The notes below the pieces were generated by a model. It searched no databases and was not told where the DNA came from. It was given only the letters and a program-made list of their open reading frames with translations. Of a stretch of DNA of 64,000 bases, positions 214 to 61,797 are shown piece by piece. The first letter of the stretch is position 1. The number at the start of each line of letters is the position of its first letter. Source of the DNA: an uncultured Candidatus Saccharibacteria bacterium (GTDB taxonomy: Bacteria; Patescibacteriota; Minisyncoccia; 2-02-FULL-40-12; GWA2-44-9). The stretch is taken from contig CAYUJB010000001.1 of the NCBI GenBank assembly GCA_964444955.1, positions 77,368 through 141,367 of the forward strand. Direction: 5' to 3'. A program made the translations under genes and the position numbers.

Positions 214-422
214 GTGCTCCCGGCAGGACGCTCGCTCCGCTCGCTATCTCACGCGTGTCGGGCTCGATTGCCTCTGGCTATCCTCGCCCTCCCTTTCTGA
301 AACCATGCGGTTTCAGTACTTCCACCACGGGAGAGACTTTCTCTCCCGACCCCTCTCTGTTCGATCCCTGCCGAGGACGAGTAACAACAACGCCCGGATA
401 TATCCGGGCGTTGTTGTACCTG
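214..422 (-). other. tRNA-3'-flanking module D: hairpin, element with inverted tRNA T-arm copy, and 16-nt direct repeat of the tRNA-Arg 3' end
   Basis: tgtgctcccggcagga at 214-229 repeats 421-436 (the tRNA-Arg 3' end). A perfect 13-bp hairpin lies at 383-417, next to the tRNA. On the tRNA-sense strand the element begins ctcggcagggatcgaac, an inverted copy of the tRNA 3' end. Confidence 0.6.
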
Positions 423-494
423 TGCTCCCGGCAGGAATCGAACCTGCATTACCTCCTTCGGAGGGAGATATCCTATCCATTGAACGACAGGAGC
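423..494 (-). tRNA. tRNA-Arg(CCG)
   Basis: Cloverleaf folded manually on the minus strand: acceptor gctcctg/cgggagc, T-arm gcagg-ttcgatt-cctgc, anticodon loop ctCCGaa, discriminator A. Confidence 0.8.
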
Positions 495-509
495 GTGTTG
501 TACTGAGCG

Positions 510-1310
510 CTAGATGGCAAGCTCGATACTGATAGGGCAGTGGTCACTACCAAGAACATCGGCATGGATTGCTGCTGTTGTTACCTTTGGCGCGATATTC
601 TTTGATGCCATGATGTAGTCAATGCGCCAGCCGACATTGCGCGCGCGGGCATCTGCCCAGTGCGACCACCAGGTGTAGTGGCCATTACCTTTGTGGAAGA
701 GGCGGAAGGTGTCCACAAAGCCTGCCTGAACAAACGCATCAAATCCGGCGCGTTCCTCTGAGGTAAACCCCTTGAGTCCCTCGTTTTCTTTTGGGCGCGC
801 TAGATCATCTGGAGTATGGGCGACATTGAGATCGCCGCAGAAGACGACTGGCTTTTTTTGCTCTAGCTCTCGCATGTAGGCAAGAAACGCCGGATCCCAG
901 TGCTTGTGGCGCAGCGGGATGCGGGTGAGATCGTCTTTGGAGTTAGGGGTGTAGACGCACACGACGAAGTAGTTCTTATACTCGGCTGCAATCACACGCC
1001 CTTCGGTGTTGGGGTCGCCATAGGCATCGGCAAGTGGTGCGTACGGCGTGGCAACGAGGGGAGGGATGTCGGTGAGGATGGCAAGCGCTTCCTCTTTGGA
1101 AAATATCGCAGTACCCGAATAACCTTTTTTGGTGGCGCTGTTCCAATATTCATGGTAATCGGGCAGATCGAGGGTCGCCTCGCCCTGCATTGCCTTGGTT
1201 TCTTGCAGGCAGAGAATATCGGGTTGGTGCTGCGCGATAAACGGCGCAAAGGTTCCTTTGCGTACGCCTGCGCGGATGCCATTCACGTTCCATGAGTAGA
1301 TGCGGGTCAC
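510..1310 (-). CDS. xthA: exodeoxyribonuclease III (AP endonuclease)
   Basis: 266 aa. N-terminus MTRIYSWNVNGIRA and a C-terminal LGSDHCPI motif are typical of the Xth/EEP family. Confidence 0.9.
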   Translation of the reverse strand: MTRIYSWNVNGIRAGVRKGTFAPFIAQHQPDILCLQETKAMQGEATLDLPDYHEYWNSATKKGYSGTAIFSKEEALAILTDIPPLVATPYAPLADAYGDPNTEGRVIAAEYKNYFVVCVYTPNSKDDLTRIPLRHKHWDPAFLAYMRELEQKKPVVFCGDLNVAHTPDDLARPKENEGLKGFTSEERAGFDAFVQAGFVDTFRLFHKGNGHYTWWSHWADARARNVGWRIDYIMASKNIAPKVTTAAIHADVLGSDHCPISIELAI

Positions 1311-1385
1311 TGAGGCAGTGTAGCGGAGGTGGAGGAAAAAGAAAACACCGACCCGGAGGGGTCGGTGATGAGGCGTTGAGTGCCG

Positions 1386-1706
1386 CTAGAGTAGGAGGCT
1401 CAGCTCGCCAGAGAAGTAGTCCTGGTCGACGGGTTGTCCTGGTGATGGAGCGTAGGCCATCCACTCGGACCCTCCCCACGCAAGGCACACCAGTGGTTTT
1501 CCCCAAAACCTTGGACTCGAAACGTAGAGTTGGGTTCCGCCTTCATCGGAGATCTCAACGGCTTGAATAGTCCCCACCAAAATCGTGTGGTGAGACCCGT
1601 GGTGTGCTTCAAATCGGTAGTTTTTTCCGAGGAGTTCGAGAGCGGATGGGAGGCCGATTTCCTGGAGAGATTCCTCGAGTGGATCGGTTTGGTTGCTGCG
1701 AGGCAT
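1386..1706 (-). CDS. hypothetical protein
   Basis: 106-aa ORF with a consensus sigma70 promoter directly upstream; no recognisable family. Confidence 0.5.
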   Translation of the reverse strand: MPRSNQTDPLEESLQEIGLPSALELLGKNYRFEAHHGSHHTILVGTIQAVEISDEGGTQLYVSSPRFWGKPLVCLAWGGSEWMAYAPSPGQPVDQDYFSGELSLLL

Positions 1707-1750
1707 TGGACATTTCCTTTGGCGTTTGTAAGGTGCAAAACAGTAAAAGT

Positions 1751-1779
1751 ATTATACTCTTACTTTACAAATATGTCAA
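1751..1779 (-). promoter_or_regulatory. sigma70-like promoter (TTGACA-17-TATAAT) for the ORF at 1386..1706
   Basis: Minus-strand sequence ttgacatatttgtaaagtaagagtataat. Confidence 0.55.
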
Positions 1780-1787
1780 TTTAATTG

Positions 1788-1869
1788 TGCCTGGGGTGGG
1801 AGTCGAACCCACATGCCTTGCGGCGCCCGATTTTAAGTCGAGTGCGTATACCAATTCCGCCACCCAGGC
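1788..1869 (-). tRNA. tRNA-Leu(UAA), type II
   Basis: Acceptor gcctggg/cccaggc, T-arm gtggg-ttcgact-cccac, anticodon loop ctTAAaa, long variable arm, discriminator A. Confidence 0.8.
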
Positions 1870-1885
1870 GTTGCGTATCATCGCT

Positions 1886-1913
1886 AGTATACTGATTTTC
1901 TTCGTTTTTTCAA
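1886..1913 (-). promoter_or_regulatory. sigma70-like promoter (TTGAAA-16-TATACT) for tRNA-Leu(UAA)
   Basis: Minus-strand sequence ttgaaaaaacgaagaaaatcagtatact, about 16 nt upstream of the tRNA 5' end. Confidence 0.5.
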
Positions 1914-1932
1914 GAAATCATGCGCACAAGAA

Positions 1933-1951
1933 AGCCCGTCAGTGACGGGCT
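1933..1951 (-). terminator. hairpin downstream of the GNAT gene
   Basis: agcccgtc-agtg-acgggct, perfect 8-bp stem, followed on the minus strand by ttcttgtg. Confidence 0.4.
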
Positions 1952-1956
1952 CGGGG

Positions 1957-2445
1957 CTAGTGGGGGACGATGTTCATCTTGTACAGATTGGTGCCCCACA
2001 CACCCACGGAGCGAGCAACGAGCACAAATCCGAGTTTCTGATACAGCGCATTTGCCGCAACGCGACTGGGACGACTAGTGAGAAAGAGTTTGATCTTCTG
2101 GCCGCGTTCATTGGCGAATCGTTGCGCCGTGGCAATCAAGGCGCGCGTGATGTGTTCGCCAATATGTTTGCCGCGTTGCGGCTCATCGACGACGACATCG
2201 TGGATTTCGGCAATCCAGCGAGCGAGATTGCGTTGGAAGAAGATGCTTCCCATGCCGAGATAGTTTTCCGGGAATTTCGATTGGTCGTCGACTGCGACAA
2301 AGAGGTGGAAGTTTGGATTTGCGAGTACTTCGCGCACGTCCGCTTCGGTCAACACTCGCTCACCGGGGGATTGCTGCTCGATGAGGTAGGAGAGGCGATC
2401 GACGAACGGGAATTCATCGGTGTCGTTGCAGCGTAGAATACGCAT
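1957..2445 (-). CDS. GNAT family N-acetyltransferase
   Basis: 162 aa. QRGKHIG...ALIATAQRF is an acetyl-CoA binding motif A-like segment. A Shine-Dalgarno aggagg lies upstream. Confidence 0.8.
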   Translation of the reverse strand: MRILRCNDTDEFPFVDRLSYLIEQQSPGERVLTEADVREVLANPNFHLFVAVDDQSKFPENYLGMGSIFFQRNLARWIAEIHDVVVDEPQRGKHIGEHITRALIATAQRFANERGQKIKLFLTSRPSRVAANALYQKLGFVLVARSVGVWGTNLYKMNIVPH

Positions 2446-2592
2446 ATTTCCTCCTTAGGAAAGAACTGTTGAGGTGCCGGCGGGATTTGTCGTACCTTCG
2501 GTAGATCTCCCGTAGGGACGACACCCGCGAATGTCGGTTTTGTCCTGCTGCGCAGGATCTCGCGTAGCGAGACAGACCAACACTACCTCTTG

Positions 2593-2664
2593 AGGCGCAG
2601 AGGGGAATCGAACCCCTGCATTGCGGTTTTGCAGACCGCTGTGTTACCACTTCACCACTGCGCC
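2593..2664 (-). tRNA. tRNA-Cys(GCA)
   Basis: Acceptor ggcgcag/ctgcgcc, T-arm agggg-ttcgatt-cccct, anticodon loop ctGCAaa, 3-bp D stem. Confidence 0.8.
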
Positions 2665-2901
2665 ATATTTCTTTTTCAATAGCTCTTTTTGTTGATGATT
2701 TTTAAGAAATAACTCTCGTTTTACTGCTTCGCTTCGTGTAATTAATGTCTCCGCCTGCAGTAACGTCCATGGTCGATATCCTTTTGTCGATCGAACTCTT
2801 CCCGCATTGTGAAGCGCCAAGCGTTGAATGACATCAGCAGTACTTCCGATATACATATCACCGTTTGCCTCGCTTCGTAAGACGTACGTGTAGTATGCCA
2901 T
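2644..2901 (-). CDS. small GIY-YIG nuclease-domain protein (YhbQ/UPF0213-like)
   Basis: MAYYTYVLRSEANGDMYIGSTADVIQRLALHNAGRV is a GIY-YIG motif. Likely start at the internal Met. The last 21 nt of the CDS overlap the 5' end of tRNA-Cys. Confidence 0.75.
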   Translation of the reverse strand: MAYYTYVLRSEANGDMYIGSTADVIQRLALHNAGRVRSTKGYRPWTLLQAETLITRSEAVKRELFLKNHQQKELLKKKYGAVVKW

Positions 2902-2956
2902 AGAACCACTTGTCATAGCTTCGCTAGATCTCGCGAAGCGAGAGCTATGCCGCCGA

Positions 2957-4489
2957 CTATAACGTTTTCTTCACCTGCTCCTCGGTGATGAATTCTAGCA
3001 CATCACCCTCGTGGATTTCACCCTCAAAACTAGCGGTATCAATACGCATACCACAATCGGCACCCTGTGCCACCTCGCTGACGTCTTCTTTTTCGCGCTG
3101 CAGACTGGAGATTTTGCCCACGCGCGTGGGTACGTCGCCACGCATGAGATCCACCAGGGAGCCCTTGCGGATGGCTCCTGAAGTAACACGACCGCCGAGG
3201 ATGACACTGCGTGCGTCAGTTTTGAAGATGGCAAGCACCTTGAGTTTGCCTATGACTGTGCGCTGGGTTTCGGTGGGGAGCTGTGCGGCAAGATCGGTGC
3301 GGATTGCTTCGATGAGTTCGTAGATAATATCAAATGATTTGATGACAATACCATCACGTTCGGCAAGCTTTGCGGCGGCGGGGTCGATCTGGACGCGAAA
3401 GCCCATGATGATAGCGCCCTTGGCGGCAGCGGTCTTCACGTCGCCTTCGGAGATGTTGCCGATGCCCGAGGCGAGCACGCGCAGGCCAATCTGTTCGGTG
3501 GGAATCGCGCTCATCGAGAGATCGAGAGCTTCCAATGAGCTTGCCACGTCGGCCTTGAAAATCACGTTGAGCGTGAGGCTGTTGGCATTGGGAGTTTGTT
3601 CGCCACGGAAGGTATCAAATGCTGCGGGTGGGGGAGTGACCGAGTCTCCCGCGAGCTCTTCGGCCGATTTCTTCGATGGCGCTGTGTGAAATTGTCCGCC
3701 GACGCGCGGCGCTTCTTGCCAGCCGGTGATGAGCACGGGTTGCGATGGGCGCGCTTCAGTGATGGCGACACCCAGGAAGTCTTCCATACTTTTGACTTTG
3801 CCGACTACGTGGTCCACGACGATCCAGTCGCCGACGTGCAGGATTCCTTCTTGCACGAGTGCAGTCGCCACATAACCGCGACGCTTGTCGAGATTCGACT
3901 CGATGATGACACCGGAGGCAACGGCGGGCAGGACCTCTTTGAGCTCGAGCAGCTCGGCGACGAGGTTGATCATTTCCAAGAGCTCGGTGATGCCGTTCCC
4001 GTCTTTTGCGGAGATTTCCAACGCGGGCGTTTGGCCACCCCACTCTTCCACCAGCACGTCTTCTTGCGCCAGATCCTGCTTCACCTTGGCTGAATTGGCG
4101 CCTTCTTTATCTATCTTGTTGATGGCGACGATGGTCGGAAGTTTGGCTTCTTTGATAATACGAATAGCTTCTTTTGTTTGGGGCTTGACCGATTCGTCTG
4201 CAGCGACGACCAAAATGGCAATATCGGCAACGTTGGCACCGCGACTACGGATGGCGGTGAACGCTTCATGGCCGGGAGTATCGAGGAAGGTGATGAGCTT
4301 ATCATTGATGGTGGCCTGATAGGCGCCGATGTGCTGCGTGATGCCGCCCGATTCTCCCGCGACCACGTTGGTTTTGCGGATGACATCCAAGAGTTTGGTC
4401 TTGCCATGATCAACGTGCCCCAAAACTACCACGACGGGTGGTCGGGATGATGGCGTTGCGCCGGGATTGTGGGCGGGTGCAGTGCTCAT
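2957..4489 (-). CDS. infB: translation initiation factor IF-2 (short form)
   Basis: 510 aa. G-domain VVVLGHVDHGKTKLLD, DTPGH and NKIDK motifs, plus the C-terminal beta-barrel region. Confidence 0.95.
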   Translation of the reverse strand: MSTAPAHNPGATPSSRPPVVVVLGHVDHGKTKLLDVIRKTNVVAGESGGITQHIGAYQATINDKLITFLDTPGHEAFTAIRSRGANVADIAILVVAADESVKPQTKEAIRIIKEAKLPTIVAINKIDKEGANSAKVKQDLAQEDVLVEEWGGQTPALEISAKDGNGITELLEMINLVAELLELKEVLPAVASGVIIESNLDKRRGYVATALVQEGILHVGDWIVVDHVVGKVKSMEDFLGVAITEARPSQPVLITGWQEAPRVGGQFHTAPSKKSAEELAGDSVTPPPAAFDTFRGEQTPNANSLTLNVIFKADVASSLEALDLSMSAIPTEQIGLRVLASGIGNISEGDVKTAAAKGAIIMGFRVQIDPAAAKLAERDGIVIKSFDIIYELIEAIRTDLAAQLPTETQRTVIGKLKVLAIFKTDARSVILGGRVTSGAIRKGSLVDLMRGDVPTRVGKISSLQREKEDVSEVAQGADCGMRIDTASFEGEIHEGDVLEFITEEQVKKTL

Positions 4490-4798: not shown

Positions 4799-4990
4799 AA
4801 TTGCGGGAAGGGTGGGATTTGCCCGCACCTCTCGCCTCGCCGTCGCGATGCTCGGGCCTGCCTACCGGCAGGCAGGTTGGGCACCGCCTCCGGGCGACAT
4901 CTACTGATATCGCATCCGTCCGGCGTTCGAATCTCACTTTCTGTCTGCGTTTCTCTATAAACTACCAAACGGCAGTTTATAGAGAAATTG
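4799..4990 (-). other. tRNA-3'-flanking module A: hairpin, conserved-core element, and 21-nt direct repeat of the tRNA 3' end
   Basis: aattgcgggaagggtgggatt occurs at 4799-4819 and again at 4987-5007 (the tRNA 3' end). A perfect 13-bp hairpin lies at 4951-4986. The core blocks cggacggatgcgat, gtcgcccggagg and gcgacggcgag are shared with modules B and C. Confidence 0.7.
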
Positions 4991-5077
4991 CGGGAAGGGT
5001 GGGATTCGAACCCACGAGACCCGTAAAGGTCCGGCGGTTTAGTAAACCGCTGCTTTCAGCCGCTCAGCCACCTTCCC
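4991..5077 (-). tRNA. type II tRNA, Ser-like; anticodon reads as ACU (unusual, needs verification)
   Basis: Acceptor gggaagg/ccttccc, discriminator G, 3-bp D stem, long variable arm, T-arm gtggg-ttcgaat-cccac, anticodon stem gcggt/accgc with loop ttACTaa. Confidence 0.7.
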
Positions 5078-5315
5078 GTGATAATAACTTCTTAAACGCG
5101 GCACCTCCCTTGTAACTTTTCAGCACCATCTCTCTTCGATACGCATCTTGCTTCGTGGCGAATTCTTCCTGATAGACGACACGCCAAGGTCGTCCTGTCT
5201 TGGTAGATATATTCCTTCCTGCGTTATGCCGTGCAATCCTCTTCGTAAGATCACTCGTAGATCCTATGTAGTGCTTTCCGGTCTTCTCGCTTTTGAGAAT
5301 ATAGGTGTAATGCAT
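5064..5315 (-). CDS. small GIY-YIG nuclease-domain protein (second copy)
   Basis: MHYTYILKSEKTGKHYIGSTSDLTKRIARHNAGR. Likely start at internal Met17 of the listed ORF. The last 14 nt overlap the 5' end of the downstream tRNA. Confidence 0.75.
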   Translation of the reverse strand: MHYTYILKSEKTGKHYIGSTSDLTKRIARHNAGRNISTKTGRPWRVVYQEEFATKQDAYRREMVLKSYKGGAAFKKLLSREGG

Positions 5316-5420
5316 TGTAAGCCACCCCCGCCAGGCGCTTCGCGCGTGGCGGGGCCTCGCCATAGGCGATGGTCAGCCACCTTCCCGTGGAGTGCTCGCA
5401 TGATACTAGCACAGGTTTCG

Positions 5421-10276: not shown

Positions 10277-10366
10277 TGGAGACGTGTCAGAGTGGTCTAT
10301 TGTACCTCTTTGCTAAAGAGGCAGGGGGTAATTCCCCTCGGAGGTTCGAATCCTCCCGTCTCCGCC
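10277..10366 (+). tRNA. tRNA-Ser(GCU), type II, CCA encoded
   Basis: Acceptor ggagacg/cgtctcc, anticodon loop ttGCTaa, long variable arm, T-arm ggagg-ttcgaat-cctcc, 3' gcca. Confidence 0.85.
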
Positions 10367-10565
10367 ATAATACCCCGAACTAGCATTTGCTAGTTCGGGG
10401 TATTACTATGGTGTGAAAACGGAGGATTCGAAGCCCGGAGCGATGTGACGACAGCAGGAGTCACCGCGAGGGCGGGAGCCCAGAACCGAGATGCCGCGAC
10501 TGGCGGCGTCGAGAGTGGCGGGTGAATCCCTGCCTGTCGGCAGACAGGCTCCCGTCTCCGCCATA
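10367..10565 (+). other. tRNA-3'-flanking module C: hairpin, conserved-core element, and 17-nt direct repeat of the tRNA 3' end
   Basis: ctcccgtctccgccata occurs at 10350-10366 (the tRNA 3' end) and again at 10549-10565. A perfect 16-bp hairpin lies at 10370-10401. The element begins cggaggattcgaagcccggagcgatg, an inverted T-arm followed by a conserved block. Confidence 0.7.
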
Positions 10566-20199: not shown

Positions 20200-20248
20200 C
20201 TTTCTGGAGGGGCCTCGCTGATGCTCTCGTAATCTCTATGCCGCTCCA

Positions 20249-20443
20249 CCCTCCGCGCCGTCTCGCAGGATGCGGAGCTCGAGCCTCATGCATCATGAGG
20301 CTCGATGTATTCATAACTCGCTCTAGATGAAAGGACTGTATCTCGCTCATACAGATGAATAGCATCGGCCTCAGATGCAATCGGCTTCTCTCGCTTCCTC
20401 CCTGTCTTCGTCGGCATCGGAGGGCTACGCTGACATGGACCCG
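20249..20443 (+). repeat. dispersed intergenic repeat, copy 1 (about 195 bp)
   Basis: Near-identical to 27749-27943 with only a few mismatches. Contains a 10-bp perfect palindrome gagcctcatg/catgaggctc. Confidence 0.85.
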
Positions 20444-20574
20444 CTGAGCGAGTCTTCTCCGTTTCCCAGCGAGCCATAGCATGCGGCTTCGCACAAATAA
20501 GTTGCAGTCGTCGTCCGCAGCTGCGAGCATCCGCATGACTTGCCTGCCGGCCGGCAGGCCGGCCGGAGCACAGA

Positions 20575-27718: not shown

Positions 27719-27748
27719 TGTGTAATATATAAGCTCTGTGCCACTGCG

Positions 27749-27943
27749 CCCTCCGCGCCGTCTCGCAGGATGCGGAGCTCGAGCCTCATGCATCATGAGG
27801 CTCGATGTATTCATAACTCGCTCTAGATGAAAGGACTGTATCTCGCTCATACAGATGAATAGCATCGGCCTCAGATTCAATCGGCTTTTCTCGCTTCCTC
27901 CCTGTCTTCGTCGGCATCGGAGGGCTGCGCTGACATGGACCCG
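27749..27943 (+). repeat. dispersed intergenic repeat, copy 2 (about 195 bp)
   Basis: Near-identical to 20249-20443. Confidence 0.85.
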
Positions 27944-27946
27944 TTT

Positions 27947-27977
27947 TGAACGGCTAAGACGAAGGTTTAGCCGTTGG
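27947..27977. repeat. hairpin module aacggctaagac-gaag-gtttagccgtt
   Basis: Variant of the 20575-20603 palindrome, directly abutting repeat copy 2. Confidence 0.7.
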
Positions 27978-40083: not shown

Positions 40084-40538
40084 TTACTATTAATACGCTG
40101 GCCTCATACCTGGCGATGGTGCGCAATAGCGTGAAAGGGGAGACGCATCTCTTCCGTACCGTGATAGCCGATGTGGATGGAGAGCAGAAGGATATTCTTC
40201 GCGATGGCGCCCTCTCGTGTGGTTTTTTTGTATCTTCAATTCTGTATCTCAACAAGCTCATCGGTGACATGCACACAGGTGTGGCGGGGCTTGAGCGTGA
40301 TATGGCAGCGTCCGGGTGGGTGCAAATTCCCGAGCTACGTGAGGGCGCGGTGGTGGTCTGGGAGCCGCGCGAGGGGGCTAGTGGCGCCCCGCATCTCCAC
40401 GCTGGCTTTGCCATCGGCAATAATCGAGCGATTTCAAATGGCTCCAATAGCACTCATATGCCAGAGGAGCATCACATCACGTATGACGATACGCGTACTG
40501 TAGATCGAATCTGGTGGAGTCCGAAATTAGGCGAGTAG
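40080..40538 (+). CDS. hypothetical protein (possible Cys/His papain-like hydrolase)
   Basis: Cys in SCGFF and His in PHLHAGFAIGNN. The start overlaps the glyQS stop. The 3' end is duplicated downstream at 41215-41326. Confidence 0.5.
   Translation: MITINTLASYLAMVRNSVKGETHLFRTVIADVDGEQKDILRDGALSCGFFVSSILYLNKLIGDMHTGVAGLERDMAASGWVQIPELREGAVVVWEPREGASGAPHLHAGFAIGNNRAISNGSNSTHMPEEHHITYDDTRTVDRIWWSPKLGE
40437..40538 (+). repeat. direct repeat DR1 (about 100 bp) flanking the GT2 cassette
   Basis: gagcgatttcaaatggctccaatagcactcatat...gtagatcgaatctggtggagtccgaa; about 96% identical to 41215-41326. Confidence 0.85.
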
Positions 40539-40556: not shown

Positions 40557-41180
40557 CTATTGTTTCAATATTTGAACCAAGATGCTCGCCCCTTGCTTGG
40601 CATATTCCCACACAGCTTTAGGAAGTGGATACTTATGGAATTTCTGAGGATGTTTATAATCAGTTAGCAATATAAATCGTCCGTTCTTGTGAGATAATTT
40701 ATTATTAAGGAATACTTCGAGACCATATCGAGTGGTCCGTTTCATTTGTTCAACTAAAGGTGACAGGTCTTTACTCCAGTACGCCCGAATTCCACTGGAA
40801 AACTTAGTAATTCTATCGTCAGTTAACTTCAGAGTGTAGTCACACTCATTATCTACGATGGGCCTCACAAGAAGTCCTAAGTCATTTTCAGTGTAATTAC
40901 TGATATCAGCATCCAAAAGAACGACAAGTTTACCTCGTGCAATCTCTAACCCTCGAGCAACACTAAATCCCTTGCCCCTATTTGCATCATTACAAATAAC
41001 TTTTACTCTATTGGCCATCGCGGAATTCAGCAGAAGCTTCAGGGTTTGATCTGTCGATCCGTCGTCAATAACGATTATTTCACTTAAAAAATCAATCTGC
41101 GATAAATCTTGAATAACACGTAAGATATTATTCGCCTCATTATAGGCAGGCACTATAGCTGATATGGCGATATCTTTCAT
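40557..41180 (-). CDS. family 2 glycosyltransferase (DPM1-like)
   Basis: SAIVPAYNEANNI...VIDDGSTDQT GT-A motifs. Confidence 0.85.
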   Translation of the reverse strand: MKDIAISAIVPAYNEANNILRVIQDLSQIDFLSEIIVIDDGSTDQTLKLLLNSAMANRVKVICNDANRGKGFSVARGLEIARGKLVVLLDADISNYTENDLGLLVRPIVDNECDYTLKLTDDRITKFSSGIRAYWSKDLSPLVEQMKRTTRYGLEVFLNNKLSHKNGRFILLTDYKHPQKFHKYPLPKAVWEYAKQGASILVQILKQ

Positions 41181-41214
41181 AATTGATATTAAAGCAGAAC
41201 TCTAGACGCTTGAC

Positions 41215-41326
41215 GAGCGATTTCAAATGGCTCCAATAGCACTCATATACCAGAGGAGCATCACATCACGTATGACGATACGCGTAGCGTAGATCGAATC
41301 TGGTGGAGTCCGAAGTTAGGAGAGTA
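41215..41326 (+). repeat. direct repeat DR2 (copy of the 3' end of ORF 40080..40538)
   Basis: See DR1; followed by a hairpin at 41332-41354. Confidence 0.85.
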
Positions 41327-41435: not shown

Positions 41436-41605
41436 AAGCGAGGGTACAGCGTACGCCCGCAATGCAGGTCATACTATAGTCCATTTCAGAGTAAAAGAAA
41501 AGAGCTTGCTACGGTTGTCTTGGCCGCTCCGGCACCCGCATCGGTCTCGCACACGGATGATGCCTTCGCCGATATCGGGTGCCTGCGCTGACAGCGACGC
41601 GTTTT

Positions 41606-41636
41606 GAACGGCTAAAACCTCCATGCTAGCCGTTGG
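41606..41636. repeat. hairpin module gaacggctaaaac...tagccgttgg (copy 3, with the flanking gcgctgaca...cgttttg)
   Basis: Shares cgttttgaacggctaaRac and ttagccgttgg with 27941-27977 and 20575-20603. Confidence 0.65.
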
Positions 41637-61243: not shown

Positions 61244-61442
61244 TAATATTTTTCATGATAGCACTTTGAAATTTCATGCAATGCAATTTCTGTGCATAAA
61301 AAATACAAATAAAAATGCGGGAGCTTTTCAGCCCCCGCGTGTGGCGCGCCGCCACGTATTGAACCCCGGGCCTCTTCTAGACCGACGTTCAAGCTAGTAT
61401 TAAGTATAGCATACTTCCAGCACTAAGTCAAGTAGCGGAAAA

Positions 61443-61613
61443 TGAGGTGGGAATTGCCCTCGGTTGGAATCTCGCCGTCGCGAGCCTCCACCTCCGGGAC
61501 CGGGCCTCGCGGCGACACCTCCTGGCATCGCATCGCTCCGGCCGTTCAACTCCCACCTTCTGGCCATCAGCACTACAAAACCGTCCCGCAAGGGGACGGC
61601 TTTGTAGTGTAGC
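61443..61613 (-). other. tRNA-3'-flanking module B: hairpin, conserved-core element, and partial direct repeat of the tRNA-Leu 3' end
   Basis: A 15-bp hairpin lies at 61572-61606. On the tRNA-sense strand the element begins gaggtgggagttgaac, a 16/16 match to the reverse complement of the tRNA T-arm/acceptor. It ends gagggcaattcccacctca plus tttt. The core blocks cggagcgatgcgat, gtcgccgcgagg and gcgacggcgag are shared with modules A and C. Confidence 0.7.
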
Positions 61614-61697
61614 GGTGCCTGAGGTGGGAGTTGAACCCACAAGTCCGTGAGGACACGCGATTTTGAGTCGCGCGCGTATGCCAATTCCGCCACTCAG
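61614..61697 (-). tRNA. tRNA-Leu(CAA), type II
   Basis: Acceptor gcctgag/ctcaggc, anticodon loop ctCAAaa, long variable arm, T-arm gtggg-ttcaact-cccac, discriminator A. Confidence 0.8.
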
Positions 61698-61797
61698 GCT
61701 ACATGTATCTTGTAGCGGGTAGTATACCTGCTTAGCACTGATTTTTCAATGTTATCCGCATTGCAGCAGTCATCTCGCGTGCTATGATTCGTGGTAT

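Follow-up and report, generated by a model that had tools for sequence, protein, structure and literature searches.

A candidate new family of tiny structured insertions at the tRNA genes of Patescibacteria

Introduction

What kind of sequence follows a tRNA gene as a perfect hairpin, an inverted copy of the end of that gene and, after a further insert, a direct repeat of the same end? The question arises at tRNA-Arg(CCG), near the edge of the 64,000-nucleotide stretch of Candidatus Saccharibacteria DNA analysed here (the window), where the 16-nt repeat tgtgctcccggcagga occurs at 214-229 and at 421-436, and it returns behind three other tRNA genes. The original prediction, drawn from the letters alone, placed one layout behind four of the seven tRNA genes, with a common core that was said to be weaker at Arg, and held that the second copy of the tRNA end keeps the T-stem with a 4-nt loop in place of the T-loop. 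The layout stands at all four genes and the core in three of them; the core at Arg and the 4-nt loop do not. As to interpretation, a conserved structure, tRNA-specific ends, variable presence and the lack of an integrase found support; att remnants, T-arm mimicry, restriction to tRNA genes and a core common to all four modules did not.

The three related inserts hold what looks like a previously undescribed element of about 85 bases with two hairpins, from a new family of tiny structured tRNA-targeting insertions. We found no description of this core family in the literature; the nearest systems were the group I introns in the anticodon loop of Patescibacteria tRNAs, and TIGR-Tas, neither of which matches.

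Results

Four modules in the window

ARAGORN and Rfam agree on seven tRNA genes, within 1-2 nt of the coordinates first given, and Rfam 15 at its gathering threshold reports these seven tRNAs and nothing else in the whole window. Behind four of them (Table 1) stand a perfect hairpin, a segment X' that inverts the T-loop and T-stem, an insert, and X, a direct repeat of the tRNA 3' part. At Arg (instance 1) the repeat, the hairpin and the inverted T-arm copy are all present, and the order of parts is the same in the Ser(ACT), Ser(GCT) and Leu(CAA) modules. The repeat measures 21 nt at Ser(ACT) (23 nt with one mismatch), 22 nt at Ser(GCT), in two parts around a 20-nt hairpin insert (10530-10549) that the related genome L123 lacks, and 10 nt at Leu(CAA) (14 nt with one mismatch).

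Table 1. Parts of the four modules and their positions in the window
Feature	Position	Strand	Remarks
tRNA-Arg(CCG), intact	422..494	-	ARAGORN, Rfam; last 16 nt (421-436, 2 nt past the discriminator) are repeat copy 1
Instance 1 hairpin, perfect 15 bp, TATA loop	384..417	-	Read from the sequence
Instance 1 X', inverted copy of tRNA positions ~53-69, CTCGGCAGGGATCGAAC	359..375	-	
Instance 1 insert, 129 nt, two local hairpins	230..358	-	Unrelated to the family core or any fetched locus
Instance 1 copy 2 of the tRNA-Arg 3' end, 16/16	214..229	-	
tRNA-Ser (anticodon ACT), intact	4990..5077	-	ARAGORN, Rfam
Instance 2 hairpin, 17 bp	4950..4987	-	
Instance 2 X', GTGAGATTCGAAC	4925..4937	-	
Instance 2 family core, 56.1 bits	4821..4924	-	Model R1
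Instance 2 copy 2 of the tRNA 3' part	4799..4820	-	Starts at T-loop 56/57; includes 5 nt past the discriminator
tRNA-Ser(GCT), intact, CCA encoded	10278..10367	+	ARAGORN, Rfam
Instance 3 hairpin, 17 bp	10369..10404	+	Kept by compensatory changes in the orthologous locus of L123
Instance 3 long X', imperfect inversion of the whole tRNA 3' part through CCA+TA	10406..10433	+	
Instance 3 family core, 48 bits	10434..10523	+	Model R1
Instance 3 copy 2, GAATCC ... TCCCGTCTCCGCCATA	10524..10565	+	
tRNA-Leu(CAA), intact	61614..61699	-	ARAGORN, Rfam
Instance 4 hairpin, 17 bp, CUUG loop, U-tract	61571..61609	-	
Instance 4 X', AGGTGGGAGTTGAAC	61544..61558	-	Complement of the unusual T-loop TTCAACT and the T-stem
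Instance 4 family core, 67 bits	61456..61542	-	Model R1
Instance 4 copy 2, AATTCCCACCTCA	61443..61455	-	Decayed past the mid acceptor stem

The Ser(ACT), Ser(GCT) and Leu(CAA) inserts share a core of about 85 nt beyond chance: a degenerate core pattern has three exact matches in the window against 0.05 expected, and a covariance model built mostly from other genomes (R1) scores them at 56, 48 and 67 bits, the next match in the window reaching 10.5 bits. The Ser(ACT) core also holds a 20-nt palindromic mini-insert (4857-4876). The Arg locus has the same flanks around a different payload. Its insert has no match to R1 at E≤5 and no BLAST or nhmmer relative in any fetched locus, so that even a weaker core match cannot be upheld, and permissive Rfam searches (E≤10) of the module gave hairpin-driven matches only, far below threshold. 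The Arg hairpin is the centre of a decayed palindrome with arms of about 40 nt, running from the T-loop to X', and copy 2 is preceded by CG if a 2-nt gap is allowed, which is equivalent to positions 56-57. The supposed 4-nt loop was a misreading: the repeat begins within the T-loop at 56/57, and the G-rich bases preceding copy 2 belong to P3, a helix of the core whose 3' strand they form, rather than to a T-stem.

A widespread core with a conserved fold

A pattern scan covering one genome per species retrieved at least 119 stretches, about 115 of them true copies, nearly all in Patescibacteria MAGs. The family thus counts at least 115 in species-representative genomes, and the covariance model adds about 17 in the same loci. 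As the retrieval pattern fixed 18 core bases and left the stems free, the conservation of those 18 bases is partly built in.

Model R1 defines the family as a two-hairpin core with GGAGCGAUG, CAGNAG and CCGCGAGG plus the P3 helix, a definition that takes in the Ser(ACT), Ser(GCT) and Leu(CAA) inserts and leaves out that of Arg. Hairpin A is built of NCC/GGN', an internal loop GGA/GA, GCG/CGC, an AU bulge and a 7-bp stem with the hexaloop CAGNAG; hairpin B comprises the P3 helix, a variable stem and a GACGG loop. Covariation in this fold of about 85 nt is strong: pairs fill 94.6% of cells, where shuffles give 74.6% and slid partners no more than 39%, and two-sided changes occupy 407 cells against 114 in shuffles. 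The P3 helix is itself supported (3.79 paired bases, against 3.11±0.09 with shuffled partners). G-U pairs number 71 and A-C pairs 28, from which it follows that the fold lies on the tRNA-sense strand, and the stems contain 54 tandem G-A cells. The CAGNAG and GACGG loops show no variation between deep lineages; their near-invariance across Patescibacteria classes implies a conserved partner, in the form of a protein or an RNA contact.

Permissive Rfam searches (E≤10) of the Leu module and of a canonical module from another locus (L100) returned only hairpin-driven matches far below threshold. Reading hairpin A as a group II domain V or a kink-turn is contradicted by the covariation, in which GCG/CGC is a real helix and the bulge lies on the wrong strand. 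We also rejected a tmRNA, a two-piece tmRNA and a tRNA mimic: ARAGORN finds no tmRNA in the window, the helix closing the element is a plain X'/X duplex, which likewise leaves the proposed T-arm mimicry without support, and the repeat continues past the tRNA end into CCA, trailer and even terminator.

A fixed junction and target-derived ends

Among the 120 pattern matches listed (about 115 true and 5 chance), 73 lie less than 150 nt behind a tRNA gene on the same strand, and 18 amino-acid types are represented. Contrary to the supposed restriction to tRNA, tmRNA and rpsI are also followed by copies, in the same layout of X, hairpin, X', core and X. The right junction falls at position 56/57 in all of the 40 or more resolvable cases (GGTTC|GAA, T-loop C56|G57), and at the end of rpsI the look-alike site GGTC|GAAG is used. 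The direct repeat starts in the T-loop and is 16-23 nt long in the Arg and Ser modules of the window and 10-66 nt long at other loci; in three of these (L049, L068 and L106) it takes in CCA, trailer and the whole terminator, and it is therefore DNA that has been duplicated.

The ends are specific to the adjoining tRNA, as predicted: X' is complementary to its positions 54-62 in 50-52 of 52 cases, with decay after position 65, and Lys, His, Gln and Glu tRNAs are followed by the same core subtype with an X' that matches each tRNA. X' overshoots the start of copy 2 by 2-4 nt, at rpsI as well, where the bases are GAC instead of AAC. About a fifth of the copies ('class 2') have a repeat of only 3-5 nt, located at the tRNA 3' end and not in the T-loop.

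The loop of the upstream hairpin is CUGC in 41 of 107 loci (38%), and the hairpin is therefore at least partly the element's own rather than a copy of the host trailer. A host terminator alone was rejected on the same count, and on the ground that the stems continue, as perfect helices of 20-25 bp, into the end of the preceding gene's coding sequence. The CUGC loop is complementary to GCAG in loop A, and CUAC goes with CAGUAG in two of three cases, a kissing-loop covariation that is at most suggestive of a tertiary contact between the CUGC loop and the GCAG of loop A.

Several loci depart from the common form. Tandem stacks of different core subtypes occur. At L044 a tRNA-Ser(GGA) gene is interrupted in the T-loop and has no intact copy upstream, a single such case among about 115 copies; in-silico 'splicing' of all copies restored an otherwise-absent tRNA there only. 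A 5'-truncated copy, rare in the family, is found at L005. A search for cargo between distant repeats turned up small ORFs of unknown function at L005, L060 and L088, and at the first two the ORFs lie between the module and a further repeat, which is preceded by the core 3' end. At L049 the direct repeat is identical at 54/54 positions and X' is imperfect.

Variable presence and no linked enzyme

Presence and absence vary between related genomes. L123 (IF-2 77% identical), in which the Cys, Leu and Arg tRNAs are separated by 9 and 1 nt, lacks an insert behind both Arg and Ser(ACT) but carries the Ser(GCT) module. Between the orthologous Ser(GCT) modules of the window and L123, compensatory pairs are seen in the hairpin, P2a and P2b.

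The reported lack of an integrase was borne out and extended. None of the 40 ORFs in the window encodes an integrase, a transposase or a reverse transcriptase, and clustering of all ORFs within 2.5 kb of 115 copies gave housekeeping neighbours only, with no recurrent recombinase cluster and no reverse transcriptase. No TnpB, IscB or IS110 ORF lies near any copy, no Rfam guide-RNA family is matched, and the core pattern has 0 matches in 2.9 million viral contigs. The window does encode an RNase III.

Discussion

We put roughly even weight on the explanation that these modules are a non-autonomous structured element which inserts at GTTC|GAA and copies its own target during insertion. The target would be the DNA for the tRNA T-loop, GGTTC|GAA, opened between 56 and 57 with the tRNA left intact, and the usual payload would be the core of about 85 nt folding on the tRNA-sense strand. 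A nick or staggered break in the T-loop may be followed by strand-displacement or fold-back (template-switch, TPRT-like) synthesis that would produce X' and the upstream copy from the target, using machinery presumably encoded elsewhere in the genome; the mobility that we infer would thus be in trans. The finished locus would read tRNA(1-56)-X-Y, turn, (Y')-X', core, X-Y, so that the target 3' part would be present twice in direct and once in inverted orientation, and the tRNA-specific ends would be re-created at each site instead of slowly co-evolving. Once inserted, the element would probably be co-transcribed with the tRNA, pairing of X' with the downstream X would form helix P1 and so close a three-way junction, and this fold may be maintained by selection at the locus.

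Site-specific non-LTR retroelements and the SINE-like elements that depend on them (R2, L1/Alu; TPRT, twin priming) share with these copies a precise 3' junction in a stable-RNA gene, a variable target duplication, a possible 5' inverted segment and short non-autonomous copies that, presumably here too, are mobilised in trans. A fixed 3' junction with a target duplication of variable length is found here in 40 or more cases (repeat 10-66 nt). Truncation at the 5' end is typical of reverse-transcribed elements, and the family has one truncated copy (L005) and no tail. R2 and L1/Alu are eukaryotic, whereas here there is no poly-A or other 3' tail and almost no 5' truncation, and the inverted segment is the target itself.

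Not all observations favour insertion with target copying. Class 2 copies, the CUGC loop and the rarity of 5' truncation count against it, and the identical direct repeat beside an imperfect X' at L049 argues against a single-step origin unless gene conversion homogenises the direct copies. A simple fold-back of a terminated transcript was rejected at this same locus, where the second terminator copy has the same loop and not its complement. The compensatory pairs between the Ser(GCT) modules of the window and L123 suggest selection in place, and we count them in favour; compensatory evolution at an orthologous site is, however, a better fit to a host-useful RNA than to a purely selfish insert, and in that respect it weighs against. 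A bolder version is doubtful: the RNA of about 85 nt may be the active component of a mobile element or RNA-guided system of a new kind that recognises the universally conserved T-loop of any tRNA gene, with target-templated writing into the chromosome that makes a fresh guide-like X' and a spare tRNA 3' end at each new site. Such a system would be self-reprogramming and tRNA-sparing, and possibly ribozyme- or reverse-transcriptase-dependent; if real, it would have no counterpart among known transposons, introns and integrases.

The modules could alternatively be a host-useful small RNA family, which we judge unlikely. An RNA of about 110-150 nt would be co-transcribed with tRNA, tmRNA or r-protein genes and freed by RNase P, Z or III at the X/X' stem; its role would lie in processing, in termination or in binding a protein, the target copies would only build the closing helix, and spread would be by ordinary duplication. 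Every helix is kept through compensatory changes in the orthologous Ser(GCT) modules, and the G-U over A-C counts, the tandem G-A cells, the invariant loops, the complementarity of CUGC to loop A with its suggested contact and the RNase III of the window all suit such an RNA. A precedent exists in small-RNA expression from dicistronic tRNA-snoRNA genes processed by RNase Z, cited as established in PMC12045711 (its refs 66-67). Presence, however, varies among related genomes and from one tRNA to another, the perfect repeats of 54-66 nt that take in terminators are events at the DNA level, an unrelated payload occupies the same flanks at tRNA-Arg, one tRNA gene is interrupted (L044), and differing subtypes form tandem stacks. 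A host RNA is nevertheless compatible with mobility, and the two need not exclude each other. REP/BIME, ERIC, Correia and RUP sequences are likewise short, numerous, folded, ORF-less, placed after genes and tolerated or useful as terminators or RNA stabilisers, but they are simple palindromes with a family-wide sequence and no target-derived ends; the present element has a three-way junction closed by locus-specific sequence, and its site lies inside the tRNA gene.

The readings that follow fare worse. Remnants or miniatures of integrase-mobilised islands (CIME-like), with the repeats as attL/attR identity blocks, a tyrosine recombinase crossover in the T-loop and the core as an attP arm, would account for direct repeats that copy the tRNA 3' part, begin in the T-loop and differ in length, reportedly described by Williams in 2002 as the classic signature of tRNA-targeting integrases. 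Such elements also insert in the tRNA 3' part and regenerate the gene, and the small ORFs between repeats at L005 and L060 resemble successive integrations at one att site. Yet integrative elements span kilobases, or are deletion derivatives, need a cognate integrase and carry no inverted target copy, whereas the present insert measures 130-200 bp in more than 100 independent loci, has a core that covaries as a folded single strand, unlike protein arm sites, uses rpsI too, and has no integrase in the window, no recurrent recombinase near 115 copies and no match in viral contigs; the att remnants of the original prediction are thus improbable. Integron attC sites and the CTX phage attP resemble the family in some respects, conserving structure over sequence with covariation in DNA, a closing helix that is partly target next to a GTT-containing core site and, in integrons, small ORF cassettes such as sometimes occur between repeats here (L005, L060). 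The present family differs in its sequence-invariant core loops and long direct repeats, has no R/L boxes and came with no IntI; its X' end TTCGAAC and T-loop GTTCGAA are one base off RYYYAAC ... GTTRRRY, and the junction is C56|G57, not G53|T54.

No more probable is a guide-RNA-like module sitting at its own target, in which X' (10-25 nt, 5' of the scaffold, cf. sgRNA and IscB omega-RNA) would guide a nuclease or recombinase encoded in trans to the T-loop DNA or the tRNA itself. A variable antisense segment does precede a conserved two-hairpin scaffold, X' is re-specified per target, and at tRNA and rpsI sites alike the junction falls within the X'-target duplex, 2-4 nt from its 3' end. RNA-guided systems are present in this phylum, TIGR-Tas being one (PMC12045711). 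However, X keeps X' sequestered, the target is restored by the intact tRNA upstream, which would turn a nuclease against its own genome, and neither an associated protein gene within 2.5 kb of 115 copies nor an Rfam guide-RNA match was found.

An ordinary TIR-MITE with a DDE transposase, against which the original prediction had already argued from the tRNA-specific ends and the conserved core, or an intron of the T-loop, is barely credible: inverted-repeat ends, short and numerous copies and the tRNA gene interrupted exactly in its T-loop at L044 recall them, but the inverted ends differ per site, the flanking repeat has no fixed length (3-66 nt), all but one of about 115 copies follow an intact gene, and no group I or group II model is matched. 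Class C group II introns are also mobile structured RNAs that sit right after terminator-like hairpins of well-expressed genes and pair with their flanks, but they are at least 400 nt long, with six domains and no target duplication, and group II introns have been reported absent from Patescibacteria (PMC13011429). The tRNA group I introns of the same phylum, likewise extra structured sequence overlooked by standard annotation, lie in the anticodon loop (35/36), exceed 200 nt, match the group I model and self-splice (PMC13011429), whereas here the tRNA ahead of the element is intact and no intron model is matched.

The genomes of Patescibacteria are tiny, yet they carry many copies of an element whose biology is so far undescribed. 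The modules explain the 'partial tRNA' fragments and the long perfect hairpins beside tRNA genes in CPR assemblies, and because of the insert at L044 standard tRNA finders miss a tRNA gene. A mobile element would be aiming at the seven most conserved bases that all tRNA genes share, leaving the genes active and making its site-specific ends afresh with every insertion; this would be a novel answer to the problem of safe-site insertion and possibly a tool. If it is a host RNA, few other unannotated structured RNAs would match its spread in this phylum, to which a large share of bacterial diversity belongs.

Architecture of the four modules

The window, from a metagenome contig (ENA ERZ27247837, 70 kb), is unremarkable chromosomal DNA that encodes a short IF-2, type IV pilus proteins, parAB, gyrB, ligA and several aminoacyl-tRNA synthetases, and ARAGORN and Rfam agree on its seven tRNA genes. 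As the original prediction had it, four of these are followed by a hairpin, an inverted copy of the T-arm (X') and a direct repeat of the tRNA 3' end (X): the order seen behind tRNA-Arg(CCG) (instance 1; see table) recurs behind tRNA-Ser(ACT), tRNA-Ser(GCT) and tRNA-Leu(CAA). X' and the downstream X pair in all four modules; in the minimum-energy folds a closing helix, P1, encloses the internal hairpins (z-scores -2.4 to -4.4).

The common core foreseen for three modules was recovered: a degenerate core pattern matches exactly in the three non-Arg modules (0.05 matches expected), and R1, a covariance model built from 94 sequences of other genomes and the three window copies, scores these at 67, 56 and 48 bits, the next best match in the window reaching 10.5 bits with filters off. 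The weaker core match ascribed to instance 1 was not borne out, as the R1 search of the window gives no match in the Arg insert, which also lacks a BLAST or nhmmer relative in the related sequence fetched for comparison, about 2 Mb; nor was the reading of the repeat as carrying a 4-nt T-loop confirmed. The palindrome of instance 1, read off the sequence, has two arms of about 40 nt that are about 85% alike. Instance 1 has the same flank architecture and a different payload; since its flanks occur without the core, the direct and inverted target copies are independent of the latter, a point that bears on the mechanism. A 40-aa Cys-rich ORF without Pfam match converges on this module and ends in a strong hairpin of its own.

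Features of the window and of compared loci (L-numbers, loci from other genomes or contigs); positions refer to the window unless a locus is named
Feature	Position	Strand	Remark
tRNA-Arg(CCG)	422-494	minus	ARAGORN, Rfam
Instance 1, tRNA-hairpin spacer		minus	3 nt, tRNA direction
Instance 1, hairpin	384-417	minus	perfect, 15-bp
Instance 1, hairpin-X' spacer		minus	8 nt
Instance 1, X' CTCGGCAGGGATCGAAC	359-375	minus	reverse complement of T-loop, T-stem 3' strand, acceptor start
Instance 1, insert	230-358	minus	129 nt
Instance 1, copy 2 TCCTGCCGGGAGCACA	214-229	minus	exact 16-nt repeat of tRNA end
Cys-rich ORF (MDEEKKTCACGNTEFADGKCTKCG...)	52-174	plus	terminal hairpin 172-213
tRNA-Ser(ACT)	4990-5077	minus	
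tRNA-Ser(ACT), L123	7983-8070		
tRNA-Ser(ACT), L131	6877-6966		
tRNA-Ser(ACT), L073			just past its Ser(GCT) module
GIY-YIG nuclease ORF	5064-5389	minus	99 aa, Pfam E=5.5e-16
113-nt direct repeat	40425-40537; 41214-41326		96% identical
Glycosyltransferase ORF	40557-41180	minus	family 2
Second repeat family	20230-20443; 27730-27975; 41561-41618		terminal hairpin GAACGGCTAA..TTAGCCGTT
CCTGCC..GGCAGG palindrome	4857-4876; 10530-10549; 20543-20558		also in L060 second module
Cys/Leu(TAA)/Arg(CCG) tRNA cluster	495-2591		L123 10882-11122
Decayed tRNA-Cys 3'-end copy	near 2475-2492		
ExoIII-like nuclease	510-1310		
Promoter-like TTGACT..TATACT with hairpin-rich sequence	~61310-61420	minus	downstream of Leu(CAA) module
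Interrupted tRNA-Ser(GGA), L044	~2180-2410		JACOZX010000059.1
Small ORFs, L005; L060	3590-4030; oriented ~2500-3600		

A conserved, covarying core

We scanned 185,579 species-representative genomes with a pattern in which only 18 core bases were fixed (GGA, GATG, CAG, AG, CC and GAGG), so that the invariance of these bases is partly built in, the stems being unconstrained. At least 119 stretches were returned, and about 115 of the matches listed are genuine, from MAGs labelled Paceibacterota, Kaiser-, Yanofsky-, Nomura-, Uhr-, Moranii-, Falkow-, Gribaldo-, Taylorbacteria and 'Saccharibacteria', with a few among the matches listed labelled Elusimicrobia, Gammaproteobacteria or Victivallales. 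R1 adds about 17 more-diverged copies within the same 8-kb blocks. Five of the matches listed, in Firmicutes and Proteobacteria, were rejected as chance.

The core consists of two hairpins joined by two G's. Hairpin A comprises P2 (NCC/GGN', the variable pair occurring as G-C, A-U, C-G and U-A), an internal loop GGA/GA, P2a (GCG/CGC, with variants GUG/CAC, ACG/CGU and CGG/CCG), an AU bulge, a 7-bp stem that is paired but free in sequence, and a hexaloop CAGNAG. Hairpin B comprises P3 (GGUC/GACC, GCCC/GGGC, GGCU/AGCC and others), a variable stem often with tandem G-A pairs, and a GACGG loop; the 3' strand of P3 ends the core, directly followed by X. Changes on both sides are seen at 16 of the 21 pairs, and in 407 cells as against 114 after shuffling; 94.6% of cells are paired, compared with 74.6% for shuffled and at most 39% for slid partners. 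P3 has 3.79 paired bases (3.11+-0.09 with shuffled partners). Stem cells hold 71 G-U and 28 A-C combinations, an excess that assigns the fold to the tRNA-sense strand, whether in RNA or in DNA form.

Neither Rfam 15, even at E<=10, nor a full-text literature search returned the family, which is undescribed as far as the libraries searched show.

Target sites and junctions

At least 73 copies have a same-strand tRNA less than 150 nt upstream (Trp, Glu, Arg, Ser, Gln, Leu, Val, Asp, Tyr, Asn, Gly, Ala, Thr, Lys, Ile, His, Pro or Phe); others stand behind tmRNA, in tandem after an earlier copy, or behind rpsI, whose stop codon precedes at least six. There the layout is that of the tRNA sites, in L100 GTCGAAGCGTTAA, then TAAAAAAGCCCC-CTGC-GGGGCTTTTTTAT, AACGCTTCGAC, the core and AAGCGTTAAT, so that the element is not restricted to tRNAs; its site in rpsI, GGTC|GAAG, resembles the T-loop GGTTC|GAA.

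In all resolvable tRNA cases the last base of the core, C or at times A, takes the position of C56, and G57 follows as part of the repeat. The far end of the repeat varies, typically giving 10-35 nt; in five loci (L039, L049, L053, L068 and L106) it extends over 43-66 nt and takes in CCA, trailer and the complete terminator hairpin. The repeat is a DNA duplication, not RNA mimicry. A subgroup with another junction (class 2) abuts the tRNA 3' terminus, with a repeat of only 3-5 nt.

Complementarity of X' to the tRNA holds at positions 54-62 in 50-52 of 52 cases and at positions 63, 64 and 65 in 40, 36 and 26, falling to chance level past 68. X' extends on the target 2-4 nt beyond the point where copy 2 starts, and these extra bases, AAC at tRNAs and GAC at rpsI, are thus target-derived. 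X, hairpin and X' form a single long palindrome, perfect over 20-25 bp in L084, L063 and L100, which takes in bases of the upstream gene. In 41 of 107 loci, far more than by chance, the loop of the hairpin reads CUGC, which is complementary to GCAG of loop A; part of the hairpin is therefore element sequence.

Presence, absence and retargeting

Comparisons between loci speak for insertion. L123, a metagenome contig with an IF-2 of 77% identity to that of the window, keeps the order IF-2, tRNA-Cys, tRNA-Leu(TAA), tRNA-Arg(CCG), with tRNA spacers of 9 and 1 nt and nothing like the Arg insert behind tRNA-Arg. Its tRNA-Ser(ACT) has a gene 27 nt downstream and neither hairpin nor module; the Ser(GCT) module is present. 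Elsewhere, one core subtype stands behind Lys (L049), His (L068), Gln (L106) and Glu (L066) tRNAs, and the subtype with CGG/CCG behind Ser(ACT) (window) and Asn (L060), X' fitting each target. Copies of differing subtypes are stacked behind single tRNAs in L038, L054, L059 and L072. In L044, a Yanofskybacteria MAG, tRNA-Ser(GGA) is broken after T55 by 31 nt, X' and core, with no intact copy upstream of the insert; ARAGORN matches this tRNA only once the 130-nt insert is removed in silico, and it may be a pseudogene or need processing.

The Ser(GCT) module of the window differs from its L123 orthologue at about a quarter of positions, yet the hairpin, P2a (GCG/CGC versus GUG/CAC) and P2b (at least three double changes) remain paired. 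This is not expected of a dead insert and is compatible with an expressed RNA or with continued selection acting as the element propagates itself. A small RNA of the host that shares its transcript with the tRNA, and which could still be mobile, is a reading that we consider rather unlikely.

Other insertions around tRNA genes

tRNA-Ser(ACT), with its unusual A34, is kept near tRNA-Ser(GCT) in several related genomes and is a real gene, not an ARAGORN artefact. The GIY-YIG ORF beside it, absent from L123, lies between two direct copies of a 17-nt stretch, CACGGGAAGGTGGCTGA, the 5' end of the tRNA, so that this tRNA has target-duplicating insertions on both sides. The glycosyltransferase ORF between 113-nt repeats, just downstream of tRNA-Asp and its hairpin, is a further cassette-like insertion beside a tRNA. 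The tRNA cluster compact in L123 is spread out in the window by spacers of 722 nt (a GNAT acetyltransferase and the decayed tRNA-Cys copy) and 1292 nt (the ExoIII-like nuclease and a small ORF).

A second repeat family (about 215-250 nt, no Rfam match) carries a 127-nt internal insertion in its copy at 20230. The GC-rich palindrome of about 16-20 nt (two exact pattern matches, 0.03 expected) is a mini-insertion within other repeats; it splits copy 2 of the Ser(GCT) repeat and is absent at the orthologous L123 locus. Just downstream of the Leu(CAA) module, the promoter-like sequence precedes about 90 nt of hairpin-rich sequence ending in a terminator, which may be a small RNA and has no Rfam match. 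Small ORFs in L005 (99 aa, zinc-ribbon-like CPxC..CPxC motif) and L060 (105 and 87 aa) have a module on one side and, on the other, an additional tRNA 3'-end repeat with the final 15 nt or so of the core in front of it; the module junction seems to have been re-used as an insertion site.

Nature of the element

No integrase, transposase or reverse transcriptase was found among the 40 window ORFs; clustering of all ORFs up to 2.5 kb from 115 copies shows housekeeping neighbours only, and the core pattern has no match in 2.9 million viral contigs. Of the general idea first put forward, the part that has held is a miniature element linked to tRNAs, its core structured and conserved and its ends specific to the tRNA; the att-remnant and T-arm-mimic versions found no support. 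Integrase att remnants are improbable. The nearest literature deals with anticodon-loop group I introns (PMC13011429) and TIGR-Tas guide arrays (PMC12045711); a guide-RNA-like module is as doubtful as att remnants, and a TIR-MITE or an intron is highly improbable.

Established are the absence of an enzyme in cis, the conserved structured core, the site-specific right junction, the variable direct duplication, the inverted target copy, presence/absence differences and the re-specification of X' at new targets. We lean, with evenly divided confidence, towards a non-autonomous, structured, target-templating insertion element. A trans-acting activity would open the T-loop DNA, and the target would be copied during insertion through strand displacement, fold-back or template switching. 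A one-step origin is disfavoured by the combination in L049 of an imperfect X' with perfect long repeats, by the conserved CUGC loop and by the rarity of truncated copies. The product would be a direct/inverted/direct triplication whose second junction carries the payload, and such copying formally resembles target-primed synthesis with twin priming.
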